From Eledone cirrhosa (taxonomy: Eukaryota), in the NCBI GenBank assembly GCA_964016885.1, contig OZ024742.1, positions 46,686,001-46,750,000 of the forward strand: 64,000 nt of DNA, given 5' to 3'. The position numbers were made by a program, and so were the translations under genes. Shown here piece by piece: positions 2,288 through 64,000 of the stretch. How positions within the stretch are numbered: position 1 is the stretch's first letter; the number at the start of each line of letters is the position of its first letter. The notes beneath the pieces were generated by a model. It was given only the letters and a program-made list of their open reading frames with translations. It did not search any database and was not told the DNA's origin.

Positions 2288-2709
2288 GGAAGAATAACAT
2301 GGACAAGATTATAAACAAGGAGATTTATTTACAGTCTGACAATTGTTTCTATAATAGAGTAGTCTAAACATTGCTAAACACTAAAGATAGTGAGACTCAA
2401 TTTAAAATACATTGATCCCCATCATTTCATCGGACACTGAAAAGAATACAACATATATGCGTAACGGTAAATAAATAGTATTGATGATAAATGTATATAG
2501 AGAGAAATAAAGGAAGGGGGCAGATGGAAAGGGGGGGGGGAACGAAAATAAAGTTAAATGCATAACCAGCAAAATTCCGAAATCAAACTAACACGTCAGA
2601 ATAAATATAATATTAATAATAAAGATACGGATAGAAAGAAAAAGATAAAAGAATCAGATGGAAAGCATATCATTACGATAAAGGATAATAGTGATAGAAA
2701 TAACGGATC

Positions 2710-4856
2710 TACCAGTGAAAAATATGGGTTCAAATCCTGTAAAAATCCACCAGGCAACCAACATCTTGATGCCTTTGAACTTGATCTCATGAACATGATA
2801 AAAGAAATTAAATTCAAAAAACGAACCCATCTCAACAAACTGCAGTATAACATCAATGTACTTATAATAAAATTACATGCCACCAAGGGTATCATTGTAA
2901 AGGCAGACAACACATCTAATGTATACACCATGAGCCTTCACACATACAACAACTTTATACGCCGGGAATTACATAAAAAATACAAGAAAACTACTGAATC
3001 TGCACTCAACAGCATTAACAAGGAAGGTCTTAACATAGTAACAAAACATAAATTATCCGATAGAACTGAACCTCTAACACCTTGTGCAAAATCAGATATA
3101 GGCAAAATTAATAAGTTTATACTAGATAGAATATTACCACAAATTAAGGAGCAACTAACAATCAAGCTGTGGGGTAACACAAATGAAGCAATAGACTTAT
3201 TCAACACATTAGACAATAGAGAATCGTCCGACAATTTGACATAAATGACTTCTACTCTTCTATCTCCCCAGTCACCCTTAATAAGGTACTATCCTTTGCA
3301 CACAAAAAAAATTCGGATCTTTCAGCAGATGAGATTAAAATAATACTAGCCGCTAGAAGAACAATCATTAAATTCGACAACAGTTACTGGGAGCGAAAAA
3401 ATAGACAGAAAAACTTCGATATAACTATGGGATCAAACGACTCAGCCCAGATCACAGACTTGGTTGGAATTTATATAGCATATTTCTTACATAGAGAATT
3501 TGGTAACCTACAAGGCGGTATCTATAGAGACGATACTCTGCTTTTAGCTAGAAACTTAAATAGTCAGAACTTGGAAAGATTAAGGAAGAAGATTAGAAAA
3601 TTCTTCAACGATTTAGGCCTTATCATCACGTTTGAACCCAACCTCTTGGACGTATTGTTTAACCTTAGCTCAGGACTAATCGAACCCTTCCATAAGAATA
3701 ATGAAAATTTAGCTTACATTGACTATAACTCGAACCATCCTAGATCCATAATTAACTCTATAGCGCATAGTATATCCCTTAGAATCTCGCGCCTATCCTC
3801 CAACCAGGAAATTTTTTAACGAACATGCTAGCTACTACAACATAGCTTTACTTAAGGCAGGCCATAAAGAACGACTCAAATACATACCAGATACAAAAAA
3901 ATAGCAACACACTTAATGTTAATAATACTTCCCACAACCATAGAAACAACAAACCTAGGACTAAACGCAGAAATTGGCAGAATATACGTAATTTAAATGT
4001 ACAGAATACAAAAACCACTAGTAGCTGTAGAAGATGCAGAAATAGAAACTACTTATGGTTTAATCCAATGTTTAACTCCTCTATTAAAACTAAGCTTCTT
4101 TTCATTTTCTTTAAATTAGTTGACAAACACTTCCCTAAAAATCGTAAATATCATAAAATCTTTAATAGAAAAACTATCAAACTATCATACTCCACAGCCA
4201 ACAACATAGACTCGAACATTCACAAAATTAACTACAAAAGAATACATAATTCAAGTAGCCCGCAAATAAGTACCGTATCACCTAATACAGAACACACCTA
4301 TATTACATCATCGCAACCGCACACACGCCCGAGCACATCACCACAATACACTAACAAACCTAATTCGCAGCCCATACATAACAATCTACAAAATCATATA
4401 GTAGAACCTGCGCATAGGAAGGCATCTTTATGCAACTGCCACTTACCTGACAAATGCCCTCTACTAAATAGATGCCTGGATAAAAACGTAGCATACCTTG
4501 GAACTATCAACTCAGGTAGCTTGGCATGGCATTACATTGGTTCCACAGCTGGTGTCTTTAAAAAGCGGTGGTACGTGCACAGACATTCGATGATTAATAG
4601 GAATCAATCAAATACAACAACTCTCGCCAACAAAATCTGGCAACTCAAAAATGAAAGCATTAGATACGAGATCAGTTGGACAATACTGTCAAAAGCAAAA
4701 GCCTATCAAACTGGTATGTCCCATTGCAGGCTTTGTAATATGGAGCTTTTCCAAATTCTTAATTTCAGTAAAACCCTTCTTAACAGTAGAATTGAATGAA
4801 CTATTTTTTGCCGGCACAAATCAGCAACGAAATTCCTGAACTTTAGACCTACTTAA
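2710..4856 (+). pseudogene. Frameshifted PLE polyprotein: reverse transcriptase + GIY-YIG endonuclease
   Basis: ORF pieces EKYGFKS..LDAFELDL..IIVKADNTSNVY; MGSNDSAQITDLVG and GIYRDD (RT; Naiad-like MGS.D.A...LVG); SNHPRSII; CNCHLPDKCPL..VAY..HYIGST..CRLC..LLNSR, then CRH after an in-frame TGA. Confidence 0.88.
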
Positions 4857-10575: not shown

Positions 10576-10990
10576 AAGTGTGTGTATCGGCATGTATTTG
10601 TAGTAAGAGAAAGCGATATATATATCTATATATATAACGAAGGAGGTGTGGTAAGGAACCAGATGGACCATAACGCACCAGAGTACTCAATACTTAGGGT
10701 AATAGAGTGGGTAATAGGAACAATTTCAAACCCCCGACGGCAGAGCTCAAGTCGTTTCGACGGCTATTTCAGAAATAGCCGTCGAAACGGCTTGAGCTCT
10801 GCCGTCGGGGTCTTGAAATCTTTCCTATTACCCACTCTACTACCCTAAGTATTGAGTACTCTGGTGATTTATGGTCCATCTGGTTCCTTGCCACACCTCA
10901 TTCGTTATATATATAGATATATATATATATCGCTTTCTCTTGATCACTAGCAGCTTCTCTTACTACTAATACATGCCGATACACACACTT
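10576..10990. repeat. ~415 bp near-perfect palindrome centred at 10771
   Basis: ctatttc-a-gaaatag centre; arms match out through internal TA tracts. Confidence 0.85.
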
Positions 10991-13900
10991 TGCGCAGTCC
11001 CAGTTCTAGAGGGTTGCCCTGCAACAACTCCAATTTCCGCAGCAGTGGCTCTAGAGTCAATACATACAGAATGGAGGAGAGAGGGCACCCCTGTCGAATG
11101 GAACGCGTGATTGCGAACGGCTCCGATAGGTAGCCGTTCACCTTGACCCTCGAGCAGATGCTGGTGTGCATCGCCTAGATCCCGCCTCTGAAAACGAGAC
11201 CCGAACCAGCCGCCTTGAGACCCGCTTCCAAGTATCGATGGTCGACCCTATCGAATGCCTTAGACTGATCCAAATTGATCAGAGCCCCAACGAAGCCAGC
11301 TTTACTACCCACCCTCTCTATGATGTATCGCATGAGGTGGAGGTTGTCGTGTATGGACCTGGTCGGAATTGCTCACGTTTGCGCTTTCCTTACCAGGTTC
11401 TCGAGGACAAGCGCCAACCTCGTCGCTAGTACCTTGACCAAAATCTTTAACTCTGTGTTGAGCAGAGTTATGGGCCTGAAGTTGTTAATTTCGTCCCCCT
11501 TGTTGTCGTCTTTCCTGATCAGCGTTACTACGCCCTTGCCTGCAGAACTGGGAATTCTCCTGTTCTGCTGCCAATTGCAGTAGACGGCTTCGAGGACGCC
11601 AGAGAACAAGTCCGGCATGCCTACGTAAAACTTATAGGGTAGACCATCTAGACCTGGTGACTTGCGTTCCTCACAGCGGCCCAGAGCGTCCCGTATCTCA
11701 GTATCCGTGATCGGTCTTTTGCAGAACTCGGCGTCCGTGTTCGAGAGACGCGGCAGGTCGTCGAGGTATGAACTAAAGTCCATTACCCGGTTCGGCTCAC
11801 CGTCGTTCTGCTCAAACAGTGGCGCAAAGTGCTGCTGAAAGGCCGCGCACATTTGCTTGGGGTCAAGTAGCACGCGCCCGTTTTTGTCTTTCAAAGACCG
11901 AATCGTGGACTTGTTGCCACTTTTTGCCTCCGCCACTCGGGGCCAGCTGACAGCTTTCGCTCCTTCGTTTCCTAGAGCACCTGTTTTGCTTCTGACCACG
12001 CAGCCTTCGTATTTCGGGTCGAAGAACTGGTCTAATGCCGTTGTCGACGCTAACAGTCTAGCCGCGTTTCCACTTCTAAGTGTCTCCTCTACCTTGGCTA
12101 CTATTTCTCTTTCTATTTTGTTTTTCTCTAAGGCTAACTCTCTGCTAAACTCTATCGATTCTACTCTAATTGCTTTCTTGAGAGAGTACCATCATCTATT
12201 GTTGACGATGGCTCCCGTTAACTGTTGCTTGACTAGTCTACTTATCCGTTCACTGTAAGCTTTACGTGCCGGCAACGACACGTTCAGCTTCCAGTATCCG
12301 GGTCCCTGTCTATGTATTCTATCACGGTTGACTAAGCAGACGACTAATTTGTGATCTGAGTAGGCAACCATGTGCATTCGTGGACAGCTTAACATCTCCT
12401 TGTCCCTTTCTCTAATGAAGAACCTATCTAAATACGATCTAGATGTCCCACTGCGGTTTGCCCACCTTCACTGTGGTGCAGTCGGGAAATCCAGTCGATA
12501 CCTATCGGCCAGTTGGAATTGGCCGATTAAAGTTTTGAGCCTGTTGCACACCCCTCTACTGGGACATGCTCCCACATAGTCCCATCGTGCATCTAGGATA
12601 CCATTCCAGTCCCCCACTAAAAGTAAGGAGCGAGATTTTCCCAGAAAAGACTCTGAACGCTTAAAGAAGTCTGGCCGTGATTGCGATTGCCCGGTCAGGG
12701 CATAAACGGCAACCAGTCTGAAGGCTCCACATACTGTTCACGTCTAGGACTACCAGTCTACCCTCCGGGTCCAAGTGTACTTGCTGTACTCCGACATCCA
12801 GGTTCTTCCGAAACATGACAGCCACTCCCCCTCTACCTCCTGGCTGACAGAGAGATGCGTAGATCTCAAAGTCGTCGAAGATGGGGGTTAGCTGCTGCCT
12901 GTTGTGGATCCTGGACTCGGTGGTGGCTATCACATCCATACCGTGTGACCTAAAGTCGTTTAAAAGTTGGCCCTGTTTGCAGGGCATCCCTAGGCCACGC
13001 ACATTCACGCTTCCAGCTCGTAAACTAGCCATGTTGGTGGAGAAGAGTTGGCGAAAAGGACGAAAAGGTGCATTTACCTTTTCGTTTCCTGGAGATCGGG
13101 TTGTTCAATCTCCATTTCAGTTCTGGTGGGGGTGTTGGGTGGGGTGGAGAAACATTTTACTAAGACGTGGTTAATAGGTTTTTGACAGGGGTTGCCAACA
13201 TCCTGCGAAAACTGTTCTTTCAATTTCTGATAGGTTTCTATCGAAAACCTTATTAGTTTTAGGTGTGGAGACGATTCTGCTTTGACGAAAGTTTTGACCT
13301 CCGTCTCCACCTTGGAGTTTGGGGAGATGACCTCCATCAAACTCTTGTTGTTTGTGTTGATGTATGCGCATTGTTGTTTGTGTTTTTGTTGTGTTGTTTT
13401 AATTTGTTGTTCGTCCGGGAGTTTTCTTTTTATGGTGGGTGGTTGTGTTTGGGGTAGTGTTGGTGATGGTTTTTCTGGTAGGGGGATGTTTGACTGTGGT
13501 GTTGTTTGTGTTGTTGTTTGTGTCTGTGGTTGTGTGTTGGTTTTGGTGATTGGAGTTTTGGGGGTTTTGTGGTGTCTCTTTTTGGCTTTTTAGATTTCCG
13601 AGGCTCTCCTTCTTCTTCACTTAAAGGAGAAGCAGCCTCATCTGTCGGTGAATAATCATCGTCAGGTGTGTGGGGTAGGGGTATGTTGTGTGGTGGTGGT
13701 CTTTTGGTGTGTGTGTTTGTGGTAGTGTTTGATGGAGTGGGATGGAGTGGGGCTGTGTTCTTCAGGGGTGTTGTCTGTGTTTTTTCTGTTGTTGTTGGTT
13801 GAGTGGCTGTTTGTTTGGTGTGTTTGCTCGTTTCGTCTGTTGTTGTACTTCTAGTGGTGGTTGTTTTGGTGTTGGTGTTGGTAATAGTGTTTTTTTAATG

Positions 13901-15050
13901 ATGTTGTGGTGTCTTTGTGAAGGACAGGAGGCCTTTAGCTGTGCTTTGCTACTACAGCGAAAGCAAGGAAGTTTTCGACCCTCCACCGTAATGTTTATTT
14001 TGTTGTTTCGGGTATTTTGGAGATTCTTTCCGGCCTCATTTGAATCAGAATCTCCAAATCAGTACCCACGCACCTTTGTCTAATAGACTTTCGTAATCAA
14101 AAGAATCATATCAGTCTCTGGCTCTACGAAGCCAGCCAAGATCCACCAGATGTTAATGTTGGGTGGTATAATTTTTATTTTTATTTTTTTGTGTCCTTTT
14201 TCCCATGTATGTAGGGAGAAAGGTGAATGCTTTTGACACCATTGGTGTCACAGAATGTTTTTGGGCGACTGCCTCGCTTTTAAACAGTACGGAAACACTT
14301 CCGTACTGTTTTCCTCGTTGGAGAAAGTCAATATTTGCTAGAATCTCCTTGAAGGTGGCTTCTATATCTGCTTGACTAACAAATATCGGTTTTCTCGTTG
14401 TGTTGGAGACAGTCCTAAAGGTCACTGTCCTTTGAACTGTCTCTTCTTTTATTTCGAGGGGTGAGTTAATTCTAAACCCACCCTTGTCTTTGAAAGTTAC
14501 ACATTTTCTCCTTTGCTGGAGCATATCTCTTGCATTGGAGATGTCAAGATTTATAAAATTTTTGTTCACTGTTATGCGAAAGACATTTTTTTGTGTGGTG
14601 TTGTTGTTGTTGTTGTTGTTATCGTTGTTAGCCTCGGTGTTGGAAATCTCAATTCCTTGACGAGGTGAAACTTTATGTGTAGATGTATCTATGGAGTTGT
14701 TGATGTTGTCTTTTTCCTGTGTATGTATGTTAATAGGTTTAATTCCTGTGTCTTCCTGTGTGTGATTTTTCTCCGCTTCGACGGTAGAAATTTTAAAATC
14801 TTCAAGTGGTAATATTTTTTTCTCTTTGTTGACAGTCGTATCTATGGCGACGTCCATAGTAGCAGAAGCAGATATAACGTTAATATCTGCCTCTCTACCT
14901 CTCTTCACTCTCTCAACGTTCTCTAGTGTTCTTTCCGAGCTATTCATGTTTTATAGTTGGCAACATTTGATATTTTAAAACAATTTTTAAATTAAATTTT
15001 CTCCCCTAAAGGGCTGAAAAATGTGTTTACCACCCAGCTGACAATTCAGC
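10991..15050 (-). mobile_element. Tx1/L1-clade non-LTR retrotransposon, family A, decayed and 3'-truncated just before YADD
   Basis: ORF1 pieces 14947->13074 (CFRCSSKAQLKASC knuckle); ORF2 from 13032 MASLRAGSVNVRGL (APE), YSDH, GYWKLN, KSPGLDGL, FRPITLLN, KAFDRVDH, RQGCPLS. Confidence 0.92.
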
Positions 15051-15191
15051 TTAGGGGTTAATCTCCAAAATGATATGTTTTTTGAAACAATTAGTTCGGT
15101 TTTTTGCATATAAATTAACAAAAAAGCTTACCGGTGATGTTTCATGCGTCAGGCAGATAAAGAGATAGATAAATAGATAGATGGATAGAAT

Positions 15192-15225
<34 letters not shown>

Positions 15226-15905
15226 AGGATAAAGAAAGAACACATGAAGCGAAATACGTAAAGATAAGAAAAAAATATGTGAAACAAGAACACCCATGAA
15301 GCAATTAACTGTTTCGATTGTTAAATATTTCCATAGCCTTCATATACTCGAAGATCTTGCTTATGGTTGGTATATCCTTAACAATAGATTTTACTCATTT
15401 TCTAAAGATCAGACTGGAAAAAATGGTGCCACAAGGATATTGTGTAGTCTTCGCCGAAACGTAGAGTTGGTTTTATACGAGAGTTATACAAGGTCATTTT
15501 GAGCAACCTACACAAAACGTCAGCTTGTCCAGAAAGACGAAATTGTATGTGCATTCTCTCTATAGAAATGGAGTTTAGACGTAAATGTTTTAAATATCCT
15601 CTGTAACGATGCGGATGATAGTAGGGAAAGTTATATATTGTTAGCTATAGTAATTCATCTAGACATGAAGTTATTAAATATTAACTACTAGTGAAATATA
15701 TAGTTGTTAATTATAAAATACTTAATTCATACAAAAACTGAAGATCTATTAAAGAGATGTGATTAATCATATTCTTGATTAATGTAGTAACCAGTAAGTA
15801 AAATTGTATGTGTTTTTACCTGAGGGCACACGTGTATATATATATGTATAGTAATAATAAATGTGAAGACTATTTTAAAATACATATAATATATATGTAT
15901 GTATG

Positions 15906-47134: not shown

Positions 47135-48338
47135 TGAGTAGCTCAATTTACCCCTCTTCATCACAAGGACTCCACACTTACTAATACCAAATTGCATACA
47201 TATATCACTGCTGAAAATACGGACAGTGTCAACAAGCACATCCAACTCCTCACTCTTCCCGAAGAGCTTAAGATCGTCCACGAAGAGGAGGTGATTGATG
47301 GTAGGCTCTCCCTTTCCCAACTTGTATCCTGCTCTCACGTTTTGCAGTATAATGGTCAGGGGCATCAGGGCAAGGACAACAGAGGGGACAGGCTATCTCC
47401 CTGGAAGATACCTCTCTTGATCTTCACGCCTCCCAAGGATTCTCCAGCTGATGTTAACTCTGTTTTCCAGGACTTCATACTTTTGCCCAACAACTGTCTG
47501 ATCTTATCTGCCACCCTGAAGATCTCTAGGCTTTTGGTGATCCAAGAATGAGGCACCATGTCAAATGCCTTTTTGTAGTCTATTCATCCCATGGCAAGAC
47601 CAGTGTGTCTCCTCTTGAAATTCATCATTACCATCTTATCAATAAGTAACTGGTCCTTTGTACCACGGGACCTCTTTCGGCATCCTTTCTGTTCGTCCTG
47701 TAACAGGTTGTTTGTGTGGAGGTGATGGTAGATTTCCTCAGACGCAATGCTTGTCAACAGTTTCCACATTACGGACAGACATGTGATAGGTCTATAGTTG
47801 GTAACATCATTACTCTTGATTCGGTCTTTCATTACCAGAACTGTGGTACCTTTTGTCAACCACTCTGGTACCTCACGTGACATCAAGCAGTCATTGAACA
47901 TTGTTGTCAGTTTCGAGTGGAGGGATGTTACATGTTTAATCCAATACCCCTGCAGACCATCTGGGCCTGGTGATTTCCAGTTGGTTAGTTTTTTGGCCTG
48001 CCCCTTGAGAGTTTCAACTGTGATACTCAAATCAGTTTGTTGGTGTGCCTGTTCACTAATCCCCTTTTGTACTGTCTGAATCCACACTGCCTGGTCATTA
48101 TGTTTAACATCCTGCTCCCATATTCCTCTCCAGAATGTCTTAGTTTGTTCCGCCTCAGGGATCCAGTCGTTGCCTCTTTCTTTCCATTCAAGCTGTCCAA
48201 ACAACATCTTCTGGTTGTTGTCAAACATGCGGTTTTGTCTATACTGACTGATTCTGCTCTCGTATCGCCTAATTTTTGCACTCTTTGCTACAATGCGTTG
48301 CTTCAGTTCCTCTATGATAATATTTAGCCTTTTCCTCC

Positions 48339-48340
<2 letters not shown>
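47135..48340 (-). mobile_element. R4/Dong-type LINE RT fragment
   Basis: WKSPGPDGLQGYWIK, NYRPITCL, EQKGC, GIFQGDSLSPLL, INHLLFVDDLKLF. Confidence 0.9.
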
Positions 48341-48399
<59 letters not shown>

Positions 48400-48642
48400 T
48401 TTTCTTTATTAACCACAAGGGTTTACATAAAGTAGACATTAAGGACAGTACAGGACAATACAGGACGGTACAAATGAGCATTTCTGCGTGTAAAAAAACA
48501 GAGGTTGAAATAAAATAACAAAGAAAAATTCCCCAATAGGGGGGAGACTTCCAAGGGACATTTGTGGAGAAAGCCCATTAAAAGACCACAGTGGCCCTGA
48601 CCACCAGGGCAAGTGCCCTCTCCCAGTTTTTCCACCTTTAAT

Positions 48643-51600
48643 TTACAGACACATACTCAGAGAAGGCCCATTCATTCGGGCCATACTTGCTTCTCTCACC
48701 CATCTTTCAACAAAATGCTGGGAAGAGAGCACTTCCCTCTCTACCCTGATTTTCCTTTTCAAATAAAATTTGAAAAAGTTAATCAGGACATCACCGAAGA
48801 TGTAAGTGCTCGTCTTCAGCCCTTTCAAACGTGTCCACCATACTATCTCTTTCGCCATGGCCACCAGACAGATAAAAACTGCCTGCCCTTCCAGGCTAAA
48901 GGAAGGGGGCGGGGCAATCCTCACGATGGACTCAGCTGATAGCTGGATCCGTCCTACACGTGACAGCAGGTGTTCGACATAAACCCACAAGTCAGCAATG
49001 CTCGGACACTGCACGAGTGCGTGCAGGACGGTTTCGTCGCCCTGCGCGCATCTCGGACATGCCCGGGGGACGGCACCTCCATGCCTGTAGAGTTCATCCC
49101 GAACTGGCAAAGCTCCTCGGTAGCACTGCCAGGCCAGGGATTTCTGGAAGTTGTCCATAGGCCCCGGCCCGAAAGTCCTTCCGAAGAGATTGGCTAGTTG
49201 ATTTTCGTCGACGCCTAGAGTTTCTCCAAGTACGTCGTCGCTCTTCCCCTCCACTAATCCCCTATAGAACGCCAAGGTGGAGTTTCCACCGATCACATTG
49301 CCCGATTGGTCGAGGGCTGTGAGCGCCTGAAGACATTCCAGTCTCCAAGCGCTCCTTCTCGGTCTTCGCTTGACCCAGGACTGCAGCTCCGTCAAGGAGA
49401 CGAGCTGGGGAAAAACGTGTCTTGCAAACGGCGACCACACCTGATCACCGTCGAGGAAGAGGTGGAGATGTCGTAGCCTGAGCGCGTGTCTGCGAATCAT
49501 CAGCCACGGCATGCCCAGCCCTCCACGTAGCGGGTGTTGACAGCAGATGGACCGCCTGACCATCGGAGCGCGTCCCTTCCACAAGAAGCGAAAGAGCAAA
49601 CGCTCCAGCGCAGTCAGGCGGGGCTTAGGACAAGGTACGACGGTCAGGCGGTAGTAGATGACGGATGCGATGTACGCATTCGCCACCTCCGCTCGACCTT
49701 TCAGGGATAGCTTCCTCTCGGCCCATTTCTGGGTGAGAGAAGCCACACTGCTCGTCACCTCGTCCCAGTTTTTGTCCGTCTGGAGGTCTGGACCGAACCA
49801 GACCCCTAGCAATTTAACCGGTCCGTCCGTCCAGCGCCCGACGACGCTGTTGGACGGCATGGACCTGCCTCTCCGGGTGCCGAGCTGCAGGCCCACTGAC
49901 TTTTCCTGGCTGATCATTGCTCCTGTCACCGCTTCGTATTCTCTTAGTGTAGTGCCGATCGCCTCGATGTGTTTGGCGTTCGACACCACTACGGTGACAT
50001 TGTCGGCATATGCTGACACGGATCTTCCGCATCCTAGTTCGCGCGGGACCCCCCTCAACGTCTCCAGTTTGTGCAGTAATGGCTCGAGAGTCAATACGTA
50101 CAATAGGGACGAGAGGGGACATCCTTGGTGGACAGAGCGCATGATGTTGAACGGTTCCGAAAGGTGACCGTTCACTCTCACTACAGAGCAGATGTCGCTG
50201 TGCATGGCAGCGCCCTCAGGACTGCCGTTAGGTAACGATGGTCGACCCTATCGAAGGCTTTCGACTGATCTAAATTGATCAAAGACCCACCCGTGCCAGG
50301 TTCCCTAGCTACCCTCTCTACGATGTATCGCATGAGGTGGAGGTTGTCGTGGATGGATCTGTCGGGAATGGTGCATGTCTGTGCCTCTCCCACCAGACCA
50401 CCAACGACAAGCGCCAACCTCTTTGCTAGCACCTTGGCCAAAATCCTGAACTCTGTGTTTAGCAGAGTTATGGGCCTAAAATTATCTATGTTATCCCCCT
50501 TGTTCGGATCCTTTCTCAGCAACGCCACCGCTCCTCGGCTCACAGAGCTGGGAATTCTCCCGTTCTGTTGCCAGTTGCAGTAGACGTCCGCCAAGAGGCC
50601 TCCGAACAAGTTTGGCATTTGTACGTAAAATTCATACGGCAGACCATCCAAACCAGGCGATTTACCCCTTGTGCAACTAGTCATTGCATCCCGTACTTCA
50701 GCGGTTGTTATCGGCTTTTCGCAACACTCCGCCTCAGTGGCCGAAAGCCGCGGCAGTCCGTCGAGGTAGACACTAAAGTCCATCCCTCGATCCGGCCCGC
50801 CACTGCCCCCGAACAGTTGAGCGAAGTGTCGCTGAAAAGCTTCACACATTTGCCCGGGATCGAGTAGCATGCGCCCGTCGTGGTCCACCAAAGACCGGAT
50901 CGTGGCTTTGTTGCCACGACGCGCCTCCGCCACTCGGGCCCATTGAACGGCTTTCGTCCCCTCGTGTCTGAGAGCACGCACCCTAGCTCTGACAACGCAG
51001 CCTTCGTGCTTTGCATTGAAGAATTGGTCAAGGGCCAATTTCGCCGCAAGTACGTCGGTCGCGATGCCTTTGCTAAGCGCCTCATCTAATTTTCTAACTA
51101 ATTCTCCCTCTGCTCTATTTTTCTCTATTGCTAAAGTCTTACTAAACCTAATGGACTCTATTCTAATTGCTCTTTTCAGAGCAAACCACCACTTGTTGTT
51201 GACGATGGCCCCCGTCAACGCCCCGTCAACGCTTAACTAGTTCGCTAATCCGGTCTCTGTCGGCCTTGCGCGCTGGTAAGGACGCGTTTAGCTTCCAGTA
51301 GCCGGGTCCTCGTCTATGAAGCCTATCTAAGTCAAACACACAGATCTCGAATTTGTGGTCCGTGTAGCTGACTATCTTGAATTGTGGACAGCCTATGCTA
51401 GACCTATCTATTTCCCTACAAAATACTCTATCTAGATATGATCTGGATGACCCTATGCGATTTGTCCAAGTCCACATTGGTACATTCTGGAAATCCATTC
51501 GGTACCTGTCAGACAGTTCAAAACGTCTGAGCAGGTTGGTGAGACTCTTGCACCCTCCTTCCCTATCCACTAATCCCACACAATCCCAGCGTGCATCTAA

Positions 51601-52035: not shown

Positions 52036-52069
52036 GTTGAAAAGGAGTGGAAAAGATGGGAAAAACCAC

Positions 52070-54103
52070 TTACCTTACTTCTCGTAGGGGAAAGACGGTT
52101 TTTCCACCCTTTTCACTGCTTGTGGCCTCCTCAGGAAGGATGTCCTTATAAATCCTCCTGGAGAGTGCTTGTCGGAAGTCTCTGATGTCTTTGGGGAATT
52201 TTTGTTTTAGTGTCATGTACGTTTTCTGTGTGATGCGAGTGATTTGTATGTGTGGAGGTGGTGTGAATTTTGGGGTTGTTGTGTAGTCTTTTTCTGTGAT
52301 GCTGGTGTTGTTTTGGATGTAGTGTAATAATTGCTTGTTGTTCAAATTTAATGCTGTCTAGTGTGTATCGTTTTGGTTGTTTTGTTTTGTTTGCGTTTGT
52401 TGTGGATTTGTTTCTGTTTCGCATTTTGGTGACTTTTGTGGTGTAGGTGATGGTGGTGTTGGGGTTAATGATGGTGATGGTGTTGGTGTTTGGGTTGATG
52501 GGGTTGGTGATGCTGGTGTGGATGGTGGCATATCTGTCCTAACTTTTTTGTTTCTTAATTTATTTGTTTCCCTCTGTATTTTGTTTTTGGAGGGGGAAGG
52601 AAGAGAATTTTTTCTTTTTTGGTTTCTTTTTTTTTTTTCGGATATCGTTTCCCACTCCTCGTCGTCACAATCTGTCTCCAGTTGTGATAGGCCGGGGAGT
52701 GGAATATCCTCCACAGCCGTTAGTTTTGGTTGTGGCGTGGTGGATGGTGTAGGCGCTGGTGCTAGTTCTGAAGCGTTGGGTGGTGGTGGTGTTGGTTTTG
52801 CTGGTGGTGGTGGTGGTGGTGGTGTTGGTTTTGCTACTGTTGCTGGGGTTGTTGCTGTTATAGTTGCTTCTGTTGTTGGTGCTACAGTTGTTGCTGCCAT
52901 CTCTGCTACTGGTGGTGTTGATGGTTGTGTCACTGGGGTGGGTAGGAGAGGTGGCCTCAACCTTTTAGCCTGAGGGCAGAAAGCCCTTAGGTGGGTTCCT
53001 TCACCACAAACGACACATCTAGGTCTTCTGCCCTCGACAATTACCGTGAGGTGGCTGCCGTCAGTGAGGTCTATTACCTCTGGGATCTCCTCAATGCTTA
53101 TTTGGTCCGCTTGGATCAGGAGCTCCATCCCAGATCCGGACCAGTTCTCCTGCTTTTCTTTTGCTATTGCTATTATTTTCGTGTTGGCTTCGATGCCGGC
53201 GAGGACAGCCGCTATTAGCCAGGGAATTTCGATGGCCGATGGAACGTGGGTCACCCTGATCTTTACGAGTCTCTGGCCACAATAGCTTGGGACGAGTGTG
53301 AAGTCGTCACTTCTTAATGGGGCCATGGAGTGTTCTCTAGCCTCCTCTGGTGTTTCAAAGAACACGTCCACGGTTCCATACTTTTGCCCACGTCTGTTGT
53401 AGGTTTTTCTTGCCCACACATGTCCCAAAGCTTTTTGGATTTGGGACTCGGATGCCCGTTCCACTCGGCGCGATTTTACATTTATTGTTCTATACGACAC
53501 GGTGCATAGGCGCCGATGCTCCATTTTATTAGGTGGGGGGGGGGGGGGGTTGAGGCTGACCCTGTACCCATCTTTCTTTACCATTTGTTTGGCATTTTCT
53601 AAATCCTCCTGAGTTACCGTAAATGCTTCGAACTGTTTTGCTACTCTGGCGAAACTGAGGGGGGGGGGGGTTATAATGTCATTGTTGTTGTTGTTGCTAT
53701 CGTTAATATTAATTTTAGTTTCAGTTGTGGTGGTGGTGACGTCAGTCGTCTTTGGTGGGGAAGAGTCCATGTTGCTTGATTTCATTTCGACATCACGAGT
53801 TAATTTATTTTTTTCTTCTTTTGTTTCTGTTGTCGCGGTGGTGGTGGTGGTGGTGGTTGTCGCGGTGGTGGTGGTGGTGGTGGAGGCTTTAACACCTGCA
53901 GTCATTGGTAATGGCGGGAAATGAATGTCTGCCTGAGACAAATTTAAAATATTGCTAGTGCTTATATTTTTTTTTGTGTTGGCAAACGTAGTAACATTTA
54001 CAATGGTGGTGTCGGTGTGAGATGTTAATTTGTGAGGAAGGCTTTCAGCTGCTTCGTGCAGAGGTGAATTAGCCATCTTTTTCAAAGAAATTTTTTTGAT
54101 CAT
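52070..54103 (-). pseudogene. Tx1 ORF1 (gag-like; CCHC knuckle, Pro/Thr-rich region, C-terminal domain); one internal stop at 52358
   Basis: CVVCGEGTHLRAFC knuckle; the other copy reads Tyr at the stop position. Confidence 0.85.
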
Positions 54104-54310: not shown

Positions 54311-56289
54311 CAACTGCATTTATCTTGCTTTATGTTCATACGAGTTATCACCAAGTCACAACCAGTGACCTCAAGAGACAACAAGGTCCGCCATGTTCAA
54401 GAAAGAACATACATACTCACACATGCATCTTTAGTGTTTAGACTTGTGATGAACTTATATTGACAGAATCTTCCTTAGTATATGGGCAGTTCCCATTAGT
54501 ATTATCTTTTGTATTTCTCCTATACGCGGGTTTCCTGGGATTTGCGATAAGTAATCATTAGACCCCTTAGGTATCATTCCCAGAGCGCCTACAACCACTG
54601 GTATTGTTTTAGTTCTCAATTTCCACATTTTTTCCAATTTCTATCTCCAGGTCCTTATACTTGCTCAATTTTTCAAATATTTTTATAGATACATTCTTGT
54701 CTATTGGAACAGACATATCAATTAGCAGGCATACCCTCTTTTTGAAGTCCTTCAATATTATATCAGGTCTATTTGCATCTATTTTTCGGTCTGTTTGGAT
54801 GCTAAAGTTCCACAAGATTGAGATGTGATCTTTTTCAAGTATGGGAGGTGGTTGATGTTCCCACCAATTCTTTTGATGGGGCAAGACAAAATGCTTACAC
54901 ATTATCCAATGTATGTATTGTGCAGCTCTGTCATGCCTGTTTAGGTATTCGGTTGGAGCTATAGGACTGCACATTGAAATTATATGGTCAATGGTCTCTG
55001 GTTGTTTTTTGCATACACGGCATAATGGGCTGCATCCATTTTTTATTATGTTGGCTTGGTAATTTTTTGTTGGCAGACACTGATCTTGTGCTGATATAAT
55101 CAGTCCTTCAGTCTCCGATTTCAGTCCAGAGGATGCCAACCACAGATGGGTTAAAGTTTTGTCAACATCAGGATTGTTAGGTCGCTCTGGGTATTTTCCA
55201 TACAGAGGCTTTTCTTGCCATTTCTTAGCCAGTTTCTGTAGCAGTTCTTTCTTTGCAGTTACTTTTACTTGCTTTGCTTTTTCTGTGTTTTCCATTTCAG
55301 CAGTAAATGGAACTTCTGAAATTTGTAGTCCATTACTGTATCTTTGTGTATCTTTTGTAATGGAATATGATCTTTTGATGCTTTCGTGTTTCAAAACGAG
55401 TTTGATCATCCAATCATGTGATTCCCTTAGACATGTAGATAATCCAATTGTTACAGTTTTCAACGCAATGTCTAACTGGATTAACCCACGTCCTCCTTCT
55501 TTCCTAGGGAGATATATTCTATCTATATCTGCCTTAGGGTGATGCATTCTGTGCATGGTTAAGAGTTTTCGAATTTTTGTATCGAGCCTACGGATCTCTG
55601 TGCTTGACCAGTTGATGACATTGTAACTGTAGGTTACTACTGGTATGGCAAGCGTGTTTATGGCATCGATCCTATTCCTTGCATTCAATTCCGTTCTTAA
55701 GATTGCTCTTACTCTGCGGTAACATTCCTTCCTTATCCTTTCCCTCATTGTCGAGTGCTTTATTCCGTCTCCTTCACAAACACCTAGATATTTGTAAGTT
55801 TTTTCTTGATCAAGTTCTCTTATCACGTTCCCTCGATCAAGATTAATGTCTGAACTCTTCAGCAGCTTTCCTCTGGTGAACGTTGCTTTGGCGCATTTGT
55901 CTAGTCCAAACTCCATTTTAATGTCAACAATGAACTGCTCCACAGTGGATAATAGCCCTTGCAATTGTTCATCATTTTTTGCAAATAGTTTCAGGTCATC
56001 CATGTAGAACAAGTGATTAATGGTTTTGTCATAGACTTTATATCCATGTTTTGTTTCATTGAGCATTTTACTTAATGGTATAAGTGCGATGCAGAATAAA
56101 AGCGGTGATAAAGAGTCACCTTGAAAAATTTCACAATTAATATTAACTTCTCCAGCTTCCAGTGATTTTGTTTCAAAAGGAGTGTATTTTTCCATGTCTT
56201 CATACTGAATGACAAAAACCTCCTGACAACGGGGGATATTTTGAAAATCTCTAAACATTTTTCAATCCAATCGAAGGCTTTTTATAATC

Positions 56290-56345: not shown

Positions 56346-59300
56346 GGCGCCCTACGTAGTAAATCGTATCATCGTCAGCTCCGTTTGTTGTTTTCAGTTG
56401 TATAAATTGCCTTTTATGGAACATTTTTATTGTTAACTGTATATAAGTGCACATACATTGTTTTCTGAAAAGGACACTCAAAAAGATTGGGGCCTTGGGC
56501 CCAAAATTTAAACTTTTATAATTATCAAAAAAAGAATTTCTTGGAAAAATCATGGACGACTCACAGCTGCACCAAGTAGCTGAGAGCCTTCCTCACAAAC
56601 TAACACCTCACACCGATACCACCATTGTAAATATTACTACGTTTGCCAACACTAAAAATATAAGCAGTAGCAAAATTTTAAATTTGTCTCAGGCAGACAA
56701 TCATTTCCCGCCATTACCAATGACTGCAGGTGTTGAAGCCGCCACCCCCACCACCATCACAGCGACAACAGAAACAAAAGAAAAAAATAAATTATCTCGT
56801 GATATCGAAATGAATTCACCCAGAATGAACTCTTCCACACCGAACACCACTGACGCCATCACCACCACAACTGAAACTAAAATAGACAATAACAAAAATA
56901 ACGATAACAACAACAGCAACAATGAGAATAAGAAAACCACCCTGTCTTTTGCCAGAGTAGCAAAAAAGTTCGAAGCAATCCAGGTAATTCAGGAGGAATT
57001 AGAAGAAGCCAAAAGAATGGTGAAGAAAGATGGGTACAGGGTCAGCCTCACCCCACCTAATAAAATGGAGCATCGGCGCCTATGCACCGTGTCTTATCGG
57101 ACGATTAACATAAAATCGCGCCGAGTGGAACGGGCATCTGAGTCCCAAATCCCAAAATGCTTTGGGACATGTGTGGGGAAAAAAACCCACATCAGACGTG
57201 GGCAGAAATATGGAACCGTGGACGTGTTCTTTGAAACACCACAGGAGGCCAGAGAACACACCATGGCCCCATTAAGAAGTGACGACTTCACACTCGTCCC
57301 AAGCTATTGTGGCCAGAGACTCGTGAAGATCAGGGTGACCCACGTTCCCCCGGCCATCGAAATTCCCTGGCTAATGGCTGCCGTCCTCGCCAGCATCGAG
57401 GCCAACACCAAGATAATCGAAATAGCGAAAGAAAAGCAGGAAACTGGTCCGGATCTGGGATGGAGCTTCTGATCCAAGCGGACCAAAAAAGCATTGAGGA
57501 GATCCCAGAGGTAATAGACCTCACTGACGGCTGCCACCTCACCGTAATCATCGAGGGCAGAAGGCCTAGGTGTGTCGTTTGTGGTGAAGGAACCTACCTA
57601 AGGGCTTTCTGCCTCCAGGCTAAAAGGTTGAAGCCACCTCTCTTACCCACCCCAATGACTCAACCATCAACACCACCAGGCAGCAGAAATGGCAGCAACA
57701 ACAGAAGCAACTGTAACAGCAACAACCCAAGCAACAGTAGCAAAACCAACACCACCATCACCCAACGCGCCAGAACTAGCACCAGCGCCTACACCATCTA
57801 CCACGCCACAACCAAAACTAACGCCTGTGGAGGATTTTCCACTCCTCTGCTTATCGCAACTGGAGACAGATTGAGACGACGAGGAGTGGGAAACGGTATC
57901 AGGAAAAAATAAAAAAATAAAAAAATTCTCTTCCTTACCCCTCCAAAAACAAAACACAGAGGGAAACAAATAAATTATCAAACAAAAAAGTTAGGACAGA
58001 TATGCCACCATCCACACCAGCATCACCAACCCCATCACCGCAAACACCAACACCATCACCATCATTAACCCCAACACCACCATCACCAACACCACAAAAG
58101 TCACCAAAAAGGGTAACAGAAACAAACCCACAACAAACGCAAACAAAACAAAACAACCAAAACGATACACACTACACAGCATAAAATTTGATCAACAACC
58201 AATTATTACACTACATGCAACACAACACCAGCATCACAGAAAAAGACTACACAACAACCCAAAAGTTCACACAACCTCCACACATACAAATCACTCGTAT
58301 TACACAGAAAACGTACACGACACTAAAACAAAAATTCCCCAAAGACATCGGAGACTTCCGACAAACACTCTCCAGGAGGATTTATAAGGACATCAGCAGT
58401 GAAAAGGATGGACAAACCATCCTTCCTCTACGAGAAGTAAGGTAAGTGGTCTTTCCCATGTTTTCCACTCCATTTCAACATGACCTCACTCAGAATAGGC
58501 AGCATAAATGCGCGTGGCTTGGGGTCGTCATGGATGCAGGGCCACCTGCTCAACGACCTCAGGTCACTAAACATAGATGTAGTGGCCATCAGCCAGACCA
58601 GAATCTCCGAAGAACGGGCCTTCGCACCGATCTTCGGCGGCTACGATGTGTACGTATCTCCCAGCCGTCCGGGATCGGGGGGAGGAGTTGCTGTGCTTTT
58701 TCAGAGAGGTTTGGATCTCGCCATACGGGCCATCTTCCTGGATCCAGAAGGTAAGTTGCGGGTGCTAGACGTGACAAGCGGAGACGGGCAAGTTTTCAGG
58801 CTAGTGGCCGTCTATGCACCGACAGGTTTCTTCCGGCGTCTGGAGAACTTTCTTGGAACGTCCCGCTCTTTAGTGTTAGTGGGCGATGTGGAACGGGATC
58901 TTAGATGCACGCTGGGACTGTGTGGGATTAGCGGATAGGGGAGGAGGGTGCAAGAGCCTCACCAACCTGCTCAGGCGTTTTGAAATGTCTGACAGGTACC
59001 GATTGGATTTCCCGAATGTGCCAATGTGGACTTGGACAAATCTCATAGGGTCATCCAGATCATATCTAGATAGAGTATTTTGTAGGGAAATACATAGGTC
59101 TAGCATAGGCTGTCCATAATTCAAGATAGTCAGCTACACGGACCACAGATTCGTGATCTGTGTGCTTGACTTAGATAGGCTTCATAGACGAGGACCCGGC
59201 TACTGGAAGCTAAACGCGTCCTTACCAGCGCGCAAGGCCTACATAGACCGGATTAGCGAACTAGTTAAGCGGGCGTTGACGGGGGCCATCGTCAACAACA

Positions 59301-61670
59301 AGTGGTGGTTTGCTCTGAAAAGAGCAAGTAGAATAGATTCCATTAGGTTTAGTAAGGCTGTAGCAATGGAGAAAAATAGAGCAGAGGGAGAATTAGTTAG
59401 AAAATTAGACGAGGCGCTTAGCAAAGGCAAGCGACCGACGTACCTGCGGCGAAATTGGCCCTTGACCAATTCTTCAATGCAAAGCACGAAGGTTGCGCTG
59501 TCAGAGCTTGGGTGCGTGCTCTCAGACACGAGGGGACGCAAGCCGTTCAATGGGCCCAAGTGGCGGAGGCGCGTCGTGGCAACAAAACCACGATCCGGTC
59601 TTTGATGGACCACGACGGGCGCATGCTACTCGATCCCGGGAAAATGTGTGAAGCTTTTCAGCGACACTTCGCTCAGCTGTTCGGGGGCAGCGGCGGGCCG
59701 GATTGAGGGATGGACTTTAGTGTCTATCTCGACGGACTGCCGCGGCGCTCGGCCACTGAGGCGGAGTGTTGCGAAAAGCCGATAACAGCCGCTGAAGTAC
59801 GAGAGGCAGTACTAGCGACAGTCCTGTGGGCGGCTGGCTTTGGGCCCGTCTTCAGAGGCTGGATCGCTGCCATGCACAGCCGCATCTGCTCTGTAGTGAG
59901 AGTGAACGGTCAGCTTTCGGAACCGTTCAACATCATGCGTTCGATCAGCCCGTCCCTCTTGTACGTATTGAATCTAGAGCCATTACTGCACAAACTAGAG
60001 ACGTTGAGGGGGGTCCCGCGCGAACTAGGATGCGGAAGATCCGTTTCAGCATATGCGGACGATGTCTCCGTAGTGGTGTCGAACGCCAAACACATCGAGG
60101 CGATCGGCACTACACTAAGAGAATACGAAGCGGTGACAGGAGCAATGATCAACCAGAAAAAGTCAGTGTCCTGCAGCTCGTCACCTGGAGAGGCAGGTCC
60201 ATGCCGTCCAACAGCGGCGTCGGGCGCTGGACGGACGGACCGATTAAATCGCTCGGGGTTCGGTTCGGTTCGGATCTCCAGACGGACAAAAACTGGGACG
60301 AGGTGACGAACAGTGTGGCTTCTCTCACCCAGAAATGGGCCGAGAGGAAGCTATCCCTGAAAGGTCGAGCGGAGGTGGCTAACGTGTATATCGCGTCCGT
60401 CAGCTACTACCACCTGACCGTCGTACCTTGTCCTAATCCCGGCCTGACTGCGCTGGAGCGTTTGCTCTTTCGCTTTTTGTGGAAGGGACGCACTCCGATG
60501 GTCAGGCGGTCTATCTGCTGTCAACACCCGATACGTGGAGGGCTGGGAATGCCGTGGCTGATGATGCGCAGACACGCGCTCAGGCTACGACATCTCCACC
60601 TTTTCCTCGACGGTGATCAGGTGTGGTCGCCGTTTGCTAGACGCGTCTTTCCCCAGCTCGTCTCCTTGACGGAGCTGCAGTCCTGCGTCAAGCGAAGACG
60701 GAGAGGGAGCGCTTGGAGTCTGGAATGTCTTCAGGCGCTCACAACCCTCGACCAATCCGGCAACGTGATCGGTGGAAACTCCACCTTGGCGTTCTATAGA
60801 GTATTAGTGGAGGGGAAGAGCGACAACGTACTTGGGGAAACTCTAGGCGTCGACGAAAATCAACTAGCCAATCTATTCAGAAGAACTTTCAGGCCGGGGC
60901 CTATGGACAACTTCCAGAAATCCCTGGCCTGGCAGTGCTACCGAGGAGCTTTGCCAGTTCGGGATAAACTCTACAGGCATGGAGGTGCCGTCCCCCGGGC
61001 ATGTCCGCGATGCGCGCAGGGCGATGAAACCGTTCTGCACGCACTCGTCCAGTGTCCGAGCATTGCTGCCTTGTGGGTTTATGTCGAACACCTGCTGTCG
61101 CGTGTAGAACGGATCCGGTTATCAGCTGCGTCCATCGTGAGAATTGCCACACCCTCTTCTTTTAGCCGGGAAGGGCAGGCAGTTTTTATCTGTCTGGTGG
61201 CCATGGCGAAAGTGATAGTATGGTGGACGCGTCTGAAAGGGCTGAAGACGAGCACTTACCTCTTCGGTGATGCCCTGATTAACTTTTTCAAATTTCATTT
61301 GAAAAGGAAAATCAGGGTAGAGAGGGAAGTGCTCTCTACCCAGCTTTTTGTTGAAAGATGGGCGAGAGAGGCAAGAATGGCTCGAGTGAATGGACCTACT
61401 CCGAGTATATGCCTGTAAATTGAAGGTGGAAAACTGGGAGAGGGCACTTGCCCTGGTGGTTAGGGTCACTGTGGCTCTTTAATGGGCTTTCTCCACGAAT
61501 GTCCCTCGGAAGTCACCCCCCCCTATTGGGGAATTTTTTTCATTGTTCTTTTATTACATCCTCTATTTCTTGTTTTTTACACGCAGAAATGCCCATTTGT
61601 ACCGTCCTGTATTGTCCTGTACTGTCCTTAATGTCTACTTTATGTAAACCCTTGTGGTTAATAAAGAAAG

Positions 61671-61715: not shown

Positions 61716-64000
61716 AGCTGCATTTATCTTGCTTTATGTTCATACGAGTTATCACCAAATCACAACCAGTGACCTCAGGAGACAACAAGGTCCGCCATGT
61801 TCAAGAAAGTTCATACTTACACACACATGCATCTTAAGGTGTTTAGACTTGTGATGAACTTATATTGACAGAATCTTCCTTAGTATATGGGCAGTTCCCA
61901 TTAGTACTATCTTTCGTATTTCTCCTATACGCGGGTTTCCTGGGATTTGCGATAAGTAATTACTAGACCCCTTAGGTATCATTCCTAGAGCGCCTACAAC
62001 CACTGGTATTGTTTTAGTTCTCAATTTCCACATTTTTCCAATTTCTATCTCCAGGTCCTTATACTTGCTCAATTTTTCAAATGTTTTTATAGATACATTC
62101 TTGTCTGTTGGAACGGACATATCAATTAGCAGGCATACCCTTTTTTAAAGTCCTTCAGTATTATATCAGGTCTATTTGCATCTATTTTTCGGTCTGTTTG
62201 GATGCTAAAGTTCCACAACATTGACATGTGATCTTTTTCAAGTACGGGAGGTGGTTGATGCTTCCACCAATTCTTTTGATGGGGCAGGTCAAAATGCTTA
62301 CACATTATCCAATGTATGTATTGTGCAGCTCCGTCATGCCTGTTCAGGTATTCGGTTGGAGCTATAGGACTGCACATTAACATTATATGATCAATGGTCT
62401 CTGGTTGTTTTTTACATACACGGCATAATGAGTTTCATCCATTTTTTATTATGTCGGCTTGGTAAATTTTATTGGCAGACACTGATCTTGTGCTGATATA
62501 ATCAGTCCCTCAGTCTCCGATTTCAATCCAGAGGATGCCAACCACTGATGGGTTAAAGTTTTGTCAACATCAGGATTGTTAGCTCTTTCTGGGTATTTTC
62601 CATACAGAGGCTTTTCTTGCCATTTCGTAGCCAGTTTCTGTAGCAGTTCTTTCTTTGTAGTTACTTTTACCTACTTTGCTTTTTCTGTGTTTTTTATTTC
62701 AGCAGTAAATGGGACTTTTGAAATGTGTAGTCCATTACTGTATCTTTGTGCATCTTTTGTAATGGAGTATGATCTTTTGATGCTTTCGTGTTTCAAAACG
62801 AGTTTCATCATCCAATCATGTGATTCCCTTAGATATGTAGATAATCCAATTGTTTCAGCTTTCAACGCAATATCTAACTGGATTAACCTACGTCCTCCTT
62901 CTTTCTTAGGGAGATATATTCTATCTGTATCTCCCTTAGGGTGATGCATTTTGTGCATGGTTAAGAATTTTCTAATTTTTGTATCGAGCCTACGGATCTC
63001 TGTGCTTGACCAGTTGATGATATTGTAACTATATGTTACTACTTGTATGTCAAGCGTTTTTATGGCATCGATCCTATTCCTGGCATTCAATTCCGTTCTT
63101 AAGATTGCTCTTACTCTGCGGTAACATTCCTTCCTTATCCTTTCCCTCATGGTCGAGTGCTTGATTCCGTCTCCTTCACAAACACCTAGATATTTGTAAG
63201 TTCCCTCTTGATCAAGTTCTCTTATCACATTCCCCCCATCAAGATTAATGTCTGAACTTTTCAGGTGAACGTTGATTTGGCGCAATTATCTAGTCCAAAC
63301 TCCATTTTAATGTCTTCACTGAATTGCTTCTCAGTGGATAATAGCCCTTGTAATTGTTCATCATTTTTTGCAAATAGTTTCAGGTCATCCATGTAGAACA
63401 AGTGATTAATGGTTTTGTCATAGACTTTATATCCATGTTTTGTTTCATTGAGCATTTTACTTAATGGTATAAGTGCGATGCAGAATAAAAGCGGTGATAT
63501 TCATGCTGAATGACAGGAACCTCCTGACAACGGGAGATATTTTGAAAATCTCTAAACATTTTTCAATCCAACTGTGTGGCAAACTATTAAATGCTTTTTT
63601 ATATTCTATCAAAGCAATTGATAGATTTTTTGTGTTTATTATGACAATCTTCCAGTATCATTTTGTTAACCAAAAGCTGATCTTTACAGACATATGAGCC
63701 TCGTTTACACCCTTTCTGCTCATTGGGAAATATATTATTTGTTATCAGGTGGTCATATGTATATTCAGTTAGGACTGATGTTAAAATTTTAAACATTGTG
63801 GTCAAGCAAGTTATCGGTATGTAATTTTTGGGATTGTTTGTCTCATCACTCTTCGGAAGTAGGAATGTAATGCCATTAACTAGCCATGATGATATCTTTT
63901 CTGGCTCCTTATCTATTTCATTGTAAAGTTGGGCTAACAGCTCATGAGACTCTGTGAAGGCATTTATCCAAAAATTTGGTATTTTGTCTTTTCCTGGGGA
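61715..64000 (-). mobile_element. Dong/R4-type LINE copy 2 (continues beyond the window)
   Basis: Highly similar to 54311-56290; extends further 5' (EQKGCKRGS, PITCL, SPGKDKI). Confidence 0.93.

Follow-up and report, generated by a model that had tools for sequence, protein, structure and literature searches.

The window, that is the whole 64,000-nt stretch of DNA analysed here, corresponds to contig positions 46,686,001-46,750,000 of the Eledone cirrhosa genome, which is 3.0 Gb in size. Its minus strand carries, at 10988..15231, a decayed family A copy of a Tx1-like LINE, recognized by a 4.25-kb blastn match of 88.7% to an intact member of the family and by its frameshifted ORFs. The copy is made up of the 5' UTR, a broken ORF1, a spacer and the 5' 2 kb of a broken ORF2, inside which it terminates at 10988; frameshifts are present in both ORFs. 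ORF1 ends as ...E-T-K-R-stop, and its stop codon TAA (13076-13074) is contained within AG|GTAAAT, whose first intronic base (+1 G) is 13077. The last ORF1 codon and the stop are covered by a donor-type motif (13072..13080, -3 to +6). An AG-free, purine-poor tract follows, corresponding to a 41-nt pyrimidine-rich spacer (13033..13073), which in full-length family A copies is the predicted 5' strand of a long-range helix. The ORF2 start codon, at 13032-13030, is found in a good context and is kept in all lineages of the element, and the first AG lies within TAG (13027-13025), a proposed acceptor in the Ser codon AGT which is not conserved within family A. Removal of 53 nt would join phase 2 to phase 2, in frame. 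The same layout, with 52 nt, is present in two family B copies of the window, whose donors have their +1 at 52073 (minus strand) and 58442 (plus strand). The donor on the stop codon, the AG-free tract, the first AG and the in-frame 53-nt join had been described in an earlier note on this DNA; the sequence observation was confirmed, while its reading as a small intron, whose removal would fuse ORF1 to ORF2, is not supported.

In the first family B copy, on the minus strand, the donor and the spacer reaching the ORF2 ATG (52035) occupy 52036..52076, and the ORF2 stop (48645-48643), together with a purine-rich partner strand (48636-48608), occupies 48608..48645. In the second, on the plus strand, donor and spacer occupy 58439..58479, up to the ORF2 ATG at 58480, and the ORF2 stop and partner strand (61425-61452) are found at 61416..61452. 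Both copies have the partner strand of the helix, which is absent from the family A copy, lacking a 3' end. The family B 3' UTR also contains an open frame of ~65 codons with a hydrophobic end, in the phase entered from the donor (48442-48642, minus; 61424-61630, plus); counterparts in other lineages are shorter and unlike it. The two copies are flanked by RTE-like pieces and are located at (ATT)n runs. Other decayed retroelements in the window, at 2558-4799 on the plus strand and at 47584-48405, 54609-56261 and 62671-63285 on the minus strand, presumably correspond to RTE-like RT pieces and to a Penelope-like RT whose end is GIY-YIG-like.

The element is an APE-RT LINE, whose 3' end carries a poly(A) signal and a short repeat. 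An intact ORF2 of 1,148 aa matches PF03372, PF00078 and, below its cut-off, PF13966, which correspond to endonuclease, RT and zf-RVT; the closest solved structure is human L1 ORF2p (E 4e-54). ORF1 matches no Pfam family above cut-off; direct reading of family B ORF1 revealed a zinc knuckle, CX2CX4HX4C. The elements show the tested features of the Tx1 group and probably belong to it, the name Tx1 resting on architecture. The Tx1-clade elements Kibi and Koshi, which target microsatellites, in the available part of their description (PMC4494074), share the two ORFs, the endonuclease, RT and zf-RVT in ORF2 and the insertion at short repeats; the E. cirrhosa elements are likewise inserted at short repeats, and are also found in tandem arrays. 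L1-Tx1 families have been reported in Octopus vulgaris (PMC13282606, available in part), and the family consensus files of that study may contain these same families. Neither of these two sources, in the parts available, describes a donor on the stop codon, a spacer-3' UTR helix or splicing.

Further lineages, namely B2, B3, C, D, E, F, G and H, were collected by donor-independent motif and protein searches of the genome. Every lineage derives from this one genome, and D, E, H and B2 are represented by one copy each. Among A, B3, F, G and H, the N-terminal amino-acid identity is 55-82% and the identity at fourfold sites 38-70%. The 3' flanks differ by lineage, being mostly (TATC)n-like for A, C, D and E, (ATT)n for B and F, and one fixed non-microsatellite sequence for G; the comparison drew on the 3' ends of copies L103-L292 and, in the window, on 48410 and 15150-15230. 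Sublineage B3 (1,510 copies with junction) is very young, with ORF2 open in most of the 41 listed matches and a C at -2 of the donor. Many B, B3 and G copies are arranged in tandem arrays with a period of ~5.8-6.1 kb, and the first 100 listed copies of G are concentrated towards the termini of C1-C3, which are large contigs, and on contigs of smaller size. In three copies (L110, L283 and L292) the 3' end resembles a lineage other than that of the 5' part, which suggests recombination or template switching. A metagenome scan revealed no relative, and a look-alike search likewise returned nothing.

Conservation of the donor motif at the ORF1 stop

The donor is present in every lineage, over three different stop codons: as GTAAGT (stop TAA) in A, B, B3, D and F, as GTGAGT with a TGA stop in C and E, and as GTAGGT with a TAG stop in G and H. 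The form GTAAAT seen in the window is a mutation of that copy, GTAAGT being found in 23 of 30 family A copies; the family form pairs with the 5' end of the U1 RNA of this genome at about -11.7 kcal/mol, and the predicted values for all donor variants range from -10.3 to -12.3 kcal/mol. The GT dinucleotide is retained in 93 of the first 100 listed family A copies (533 in total). Across nine lineage representatives +1G, +5G and +6T, which are silent or non-coding, are invariant, and variation begins at +7. Over five lineages 8 of 35 fourfold sites are invariant, which sets the probability that three such positions are kept by chance at 0.23 cubed, or ~0.012, when the constraint imposed by the helix is ignored.

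Selection rather than chance had been invoked in the earlier note for the donor on the stop, the AG-free tract and the phase. Selection is supported for the donor on the stop codon, kept over lineages at 55-82% amino-acid identity and over three stop codons, and is not supported for the acceptor and the phase, as detailed below. Judged by lineage comparison, the donor is under selection, and it is likely that what is selected is a U1 site. The U1 snRNA genes themselves are found in tandem arrays with a period of 2.67 kb (contig C1128; C2:180973544-180995099).

Predicted pairing of the spacer with the 3' UTR

Where copies are full length, the sequence between the ORF1 stop, with its donor, and the start of ORF2 is complementary to the first ~45 nt past the ORF2 stop. 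The predicted duplex between the spacer and the first 53 nt at the ORF2 stop has an energy of -28 to -46 kcal/mol, and this position was the best window along the element in ten of ten copies, with a margin over the next-best window below 1 kcal/mol in two of them. Compared with 300 dinucleotide shuffles, in which purine richness was kept, the helix has z values between -2.6 and -6.2; for the first family B copy of the window the duplex reaches -39.1 kcal/mol, and none of the 300 shuffles was as stable. The sense strand pairs better than the antisense strand in 9 of 9 copies, with 2-9 G-U pairs, as expected for an RNA helix rather than for a DNA inverted repeat. Minimum-energy folds of the whole 3.6-kb RNA retain the helix in B3, and all the spacer pairs are preserved in B (27/27), C (41/41), G (29/29) and H (33/33); in the fold of family A only 22 of 43 spacer pairs go to the 3' strand.

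The outer stem of the predicted helix is formed by the donor itself, and at the inner end the context of the ORF2 ATG lies opposite the ORF2 stop. Two double compensatory changes, identified by lineage comparison, are seen at donor +3, where A-U in A, B and F is replaced by G-C in C and E, and at donor +4, where A-U is replaced by G-C in G and H. The partner strand varies by wobble, whereas the donor strand does not. In a cross-lineage duplex matrix the own 3' strand ranked first for four of eight spacers and second for the other four; duplexes between lineages are also fairly stable, their purine-pyrimidine runs pairing loosely. The helix is weak in lineage G (-24.8 kcal/mol, z -1.6 to -2.1, with 6-12 of 200 shuffles as stable), three altered F-like copies are devoid of a helix signal (z -1.3, -1.2 and +0.1), and D and H, both single copies, have one mismatch each in the outer helix.

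On the strength of these models the helix is very probably real, and the combination of donor and long-range helix is well supported by comparison. No report of such a helix, or of a donor at the ORF1 stop of Tx1, was found for LINEs in the literature searched, with most subscription papers and Repbase Reports outside its coverage; both features are thus apparently unreported for LINEs, while U1-dependent subgenomic splicing is known from the element EVD (PMC5580714, available in part). Such a helix, which encloses exactly ORF2, shows compensatory changes and bears a U1 site within the stem, would represent a defined, testable control element; the families concerned are young and number thousands of copies in this genome, many of them with ORF2 intact. 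Apart from this pairing, the 3' UTRs of lineages A to F share a short C-rich/G-rich hairpin and, immediately upstream of the poly(A) signal, a conserved motif; both are candidates for recognition by the RT.

Candidate roles of the helix

The translation of LINE ORF2, and its rarity relative to ORF1, is described as an open question (PMC3894237, in the part available). The outer helix (-10.7 to -12.8 kcal/mol) and the pairing of U1 with the donor (-10.3 to -12.3 kcal/mol) are about equally stable, so that U1 and the far strand would be expected to compete for the donor. In the mechanism proposed here, U1 would bind the donor on the nascent RNA, during transcription of ORF2, since the helix could close only once the 3' end has been transcribed. 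If U1 stayed, the donor would be spliced to an acceptor at the ORF2 end, removing ORF2 to leave a short ORF1-only message, encoding ORF1 plus 1-6 residues in most lineages and supplying an excess of ORF1 protein. If the helix closed, donor and acceptor region would be hidden, and the RNA would remain full length, as a template; the same RNA would be the ORF2 message, by re-initiation at the ATG of ORF2 after the ribosome translating ORF1 had opened the helix.

Candidate acceptors for such a splice were ranked by a crude score of our own. In lineages A, C, D, E and G, which have 251-274 AGs to choose from, ranks 1-4 go to an AG located in phase four bases upstream of the ORF2 stop; splicing to it would yield ORF1 with two further residues. 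If the AG contained in the ORF2 stop itself were used, Arg-stop would be rebuilt in G and H. The rank of the ORF2-end acceptor is 13 in H, 95 in B and 164 in B3, and the site is absent in F, the best nearby CAG ranking 19-25; the largest lineages have a poor ORF2-end acceptor. The lineages with a good one form a single clade, and therefore count about once. A Ser AGY codon, moreover, supplies an in-phase AG on its own.

The genome was searched for copies of spliced RNAs, next to unspliced copies collected by exact patterns: at least 2,385 for B, at least 1,510 for B3, at least 533 for A and at least 308 for G, all lower bounds, adding up to 4,736. No join linking the donor with the candidate acceptors close to the end of ORF2 was found in genomic copies of these four screened lineages, no ORF1-only genomic copy was detected in the same screen of A, B, B3 and G, and no ORF2-deleted copy ending in the helix was found in B and B3, the two lineages searched for them. 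Eighteen locus rows were mapped for other joins, and each was accounted for by a local deletion, a point change, a fold-back inversion or an unrelated flank; one further match to a candidate join was unrelated sequence. The join patterns used earlier covered 136-148 of 261-277 possible AG joins, so about half of arbitrary joins would escape. In L1, the RT prefers its own RNA in cis; by analogy an ORF1-only message, with no RT in cis, would not be copied back and would leave no genomic copies. Among the family B loci, L208 and L212 (the same as L164) fold back into inverted ORF1 sequence starting exactly at the donor.

That whole-ORF2 splicing happens, under the control of a helix lock competing with U1, is the preferred, though tentative, reading of these models, to which slightly less than an even chance is assigned. 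The broader form of the proposal, a dedicated ORF1 message obtained by splicing out the whole RT gene, with a start-to-stop RNA clamp acting as the switch versus genomic RNA, is slightly more doubtful. If true, a non-LTR retrotransposon would be using a subgenomic strategy like that of retroviruses, which would explain how a LINE can set a large ratio of ORF1 to ORF2 protein.

Nearly as likely as a splicing lock is a helix serving translation or template choice, with U1 binding and little splicing. Such a helix, post-nuclear or in any case splicing-free, might set ORF2 re-initiation, recycle ribosomes from stop to start or mark the full-length RNA for the RT, and the donor would bind U1 only to protect or export the transcript, being rarely or never spliced. 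In its favour are the facts that the boundaries of the helix fall on the stop of ORF1 and on the ATG and stop of ORF2, that the context of the ORF2 ATG is kept in all lineages, that no spliced copy of any kind was found among the 4,736, and that the ORF2-end acceptor is weak in B, B3 and F. According to the available parts of the respective reports, U1 blocks premature termination in EVD (PMC5580714) and RNA structure influences ORF2 initiation in SART1 (PMC3894237). Against it, five lineages have an in-phase acceptor of top rank where ORF2 ends; as to protection by U1, ORF2 contains neither AATAAA nor ATTAAA in the two copies checked, which would leave little for U1 to suppress downstream.

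Partial counterparts in known systems are described here from the parts of the sources available. The proposal for the LINE has its parallel in the Arabidopsis Ty1/copia element EVD, with its subgenomic gag splicing: a conserved U1 site lies at the end of the structural gene, the balance favours structural protein over enzyme, and U1 acts also without splicing (PMC5580714). EVD, however, is an LTR element with a single gag-pol frame and a short intron tied to early termination (PMC5580714), whereas the LINE has two ORFs, a candidate intron of 3.5 kb, a normal 3' end and a long-range helix, and its splicing would be of a predicted kind. Membership in the Ty1/copia LTR retrotransposons was considered and rejected, the element being an APE-RT LINE whose likeness to EVD is in working only. 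Termination-reinitiation in L1 and SART1 (PMC5972666, PMC3894237) resembles the present case in that ORF2 has its own start shortly past the ORF1 stop, and in SART1 RNA structure near the junction matters (PMC3894237), as proposed here; in L1 and SART1, the structure is local (PMC5972666, PMC3894237), whereas the spacer of these elements is predicted to pair 3.4 kb away.

The proposed ORF1-ORF2 fusion intron

Splicing of a 52-53-nt intron, leading to an ORF1-ORF2 fusion protein, is very unlikely, and as an obligatory step it is largely refuted. In its favour are the perfect donor and the first AG, which is in frame in 9 of the 13 lineages or sublineages examined. The acceptor speaks against it. 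Codon 3, counted by eye in the first 100 of 533 listed family A copies, is AGT in 45, GGT in 37, GAC in 11, AAT in 6 and GAT in 1; the in-frame AG is therefore lost in 55 of these 100 copies, and in at least three sublineages. One of them is autonomous and young: within A, GGT marks the youngest sublineage (98.1% pairwise, versus 92.1% for the type of the window copy), in which ORF2 is fully open in 4 of the 13 copies listed. None of the first three AGs of this sublineage lies in frame, and use of the first in-frame AG (128 nt) would delete endonuclease motif I.

The phase carries little weight either. The earlier note had proposed to compare the phase of the first AG with an expectation of 1/3, a null which is wrong for this sequence: synonymous re-coding of M-A/T-S-L-R with the codon usage of the element gave an in-frame first AG in 83% of the draws for A and in 84-85% for B. 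Agreement of two families is thus expected about 70% of the time, and the acceptor and phase, the former missing from more than half of the family A copies counted and the latter expected from codon choice, give no ground for selection on a fusion.

Lineages C and D have an in-frame CAG within the non-coding spacer, placed at rank 1 and rank 3, respectively, by the crude acceptor score, which favours the fusion; the corresponding introns would be only 37 and 44 nt long. In lineage G, with 308 copies and several intact ORF2s, the fusion would need a 39-nt intron ending in AAG. Over all lineages the required lengths are 37-54 nt; figures available at abstract level indicate a threshold of 65 nt in human and ~30 nt as the usual floor in animals. 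The AG-free pyrimidine tract, taken in the earlier note for a splice signal, has another explanation in its pairing with the 3' UTR, and in light of the predicted structure is better explained as one strand of a long-range helix than as an acceptor tract. A pyrimidine tract next to a donor need not mean an acceptor.

A spliced fusion RNA would encode the RT and retain the 3' end, and genomic copies of it would therefore be expected. No short ORF1-ORF2 join was found beside the 4,736 unspliced genomic copies of A, B, B3 and G, which sets an upper bound of ~0.06%; capture of the short join by the patterns was verified for A, B and B3, and by reading for G. If copying required the helix, no genomic trace of spliced RNAs would be expected. 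Human L1, as far as the available part of the report goes, offers a comparison: its spliced RNAs, the SpIREs, also rely on conserved splice sites in a LINE RNA and represent ~2% of full-length insertions, against none in 4,736 here, and their donor is located in the 5' UTR, kept for a transcription-factor site (PMC5860796).

Protein and read data were also inspected. Searches for fusion proteins gave none among 42 candidates when the ORF1 C-terminus was compared with longer proteins, and one, unfused, among 1,942 candidates for the endonuclease region; of 150 listed protein representatives, 29 inspected by motif and 4 in full, none had the ORF1 end at the predicted junction. All three are weak tests, so that the lack, among the matches listed, of a protein with the ORF1 end joined to the endonuclease counts only weakly against the fusion. 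Contigs assembled from three runs of one sample included no joint at 13024/13078 among the 7 joints listed; the runs look like DNA and are uninformative on splicing. Two long frames (L170 and L171), considered as spliced fusions, proved to be fusions produced by indels, with the spacer retained. Ribosomal frameshifting was rejected as well, since the frame of ORF2 differs between lineages: it is -1 in A and B3 and +1 in B and C (53 nt versus 52 and 37 nt as the length of the intron).

Least probable of all is that donor and helix are functionless products of chance and shared ancestry, arising from the context of the stop codon and from runs of purines and pyrimidines that pair loosely: the single clade and single genome, the fair stability of cross-lineage duplexes and the weak z values of G point that way, yet donor and register persist, with compensatory changes, where fourfold sites are just 38-70% identical, and the best-duplex position is fixed at the ORF2 stop.

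A separate observation concerns a predicted kinesin-like protein (P0097), which continues into the decayed endonuclease N-terminus of a LINE of the same group; it is probably a gene-model artefact or a case of exonisation.
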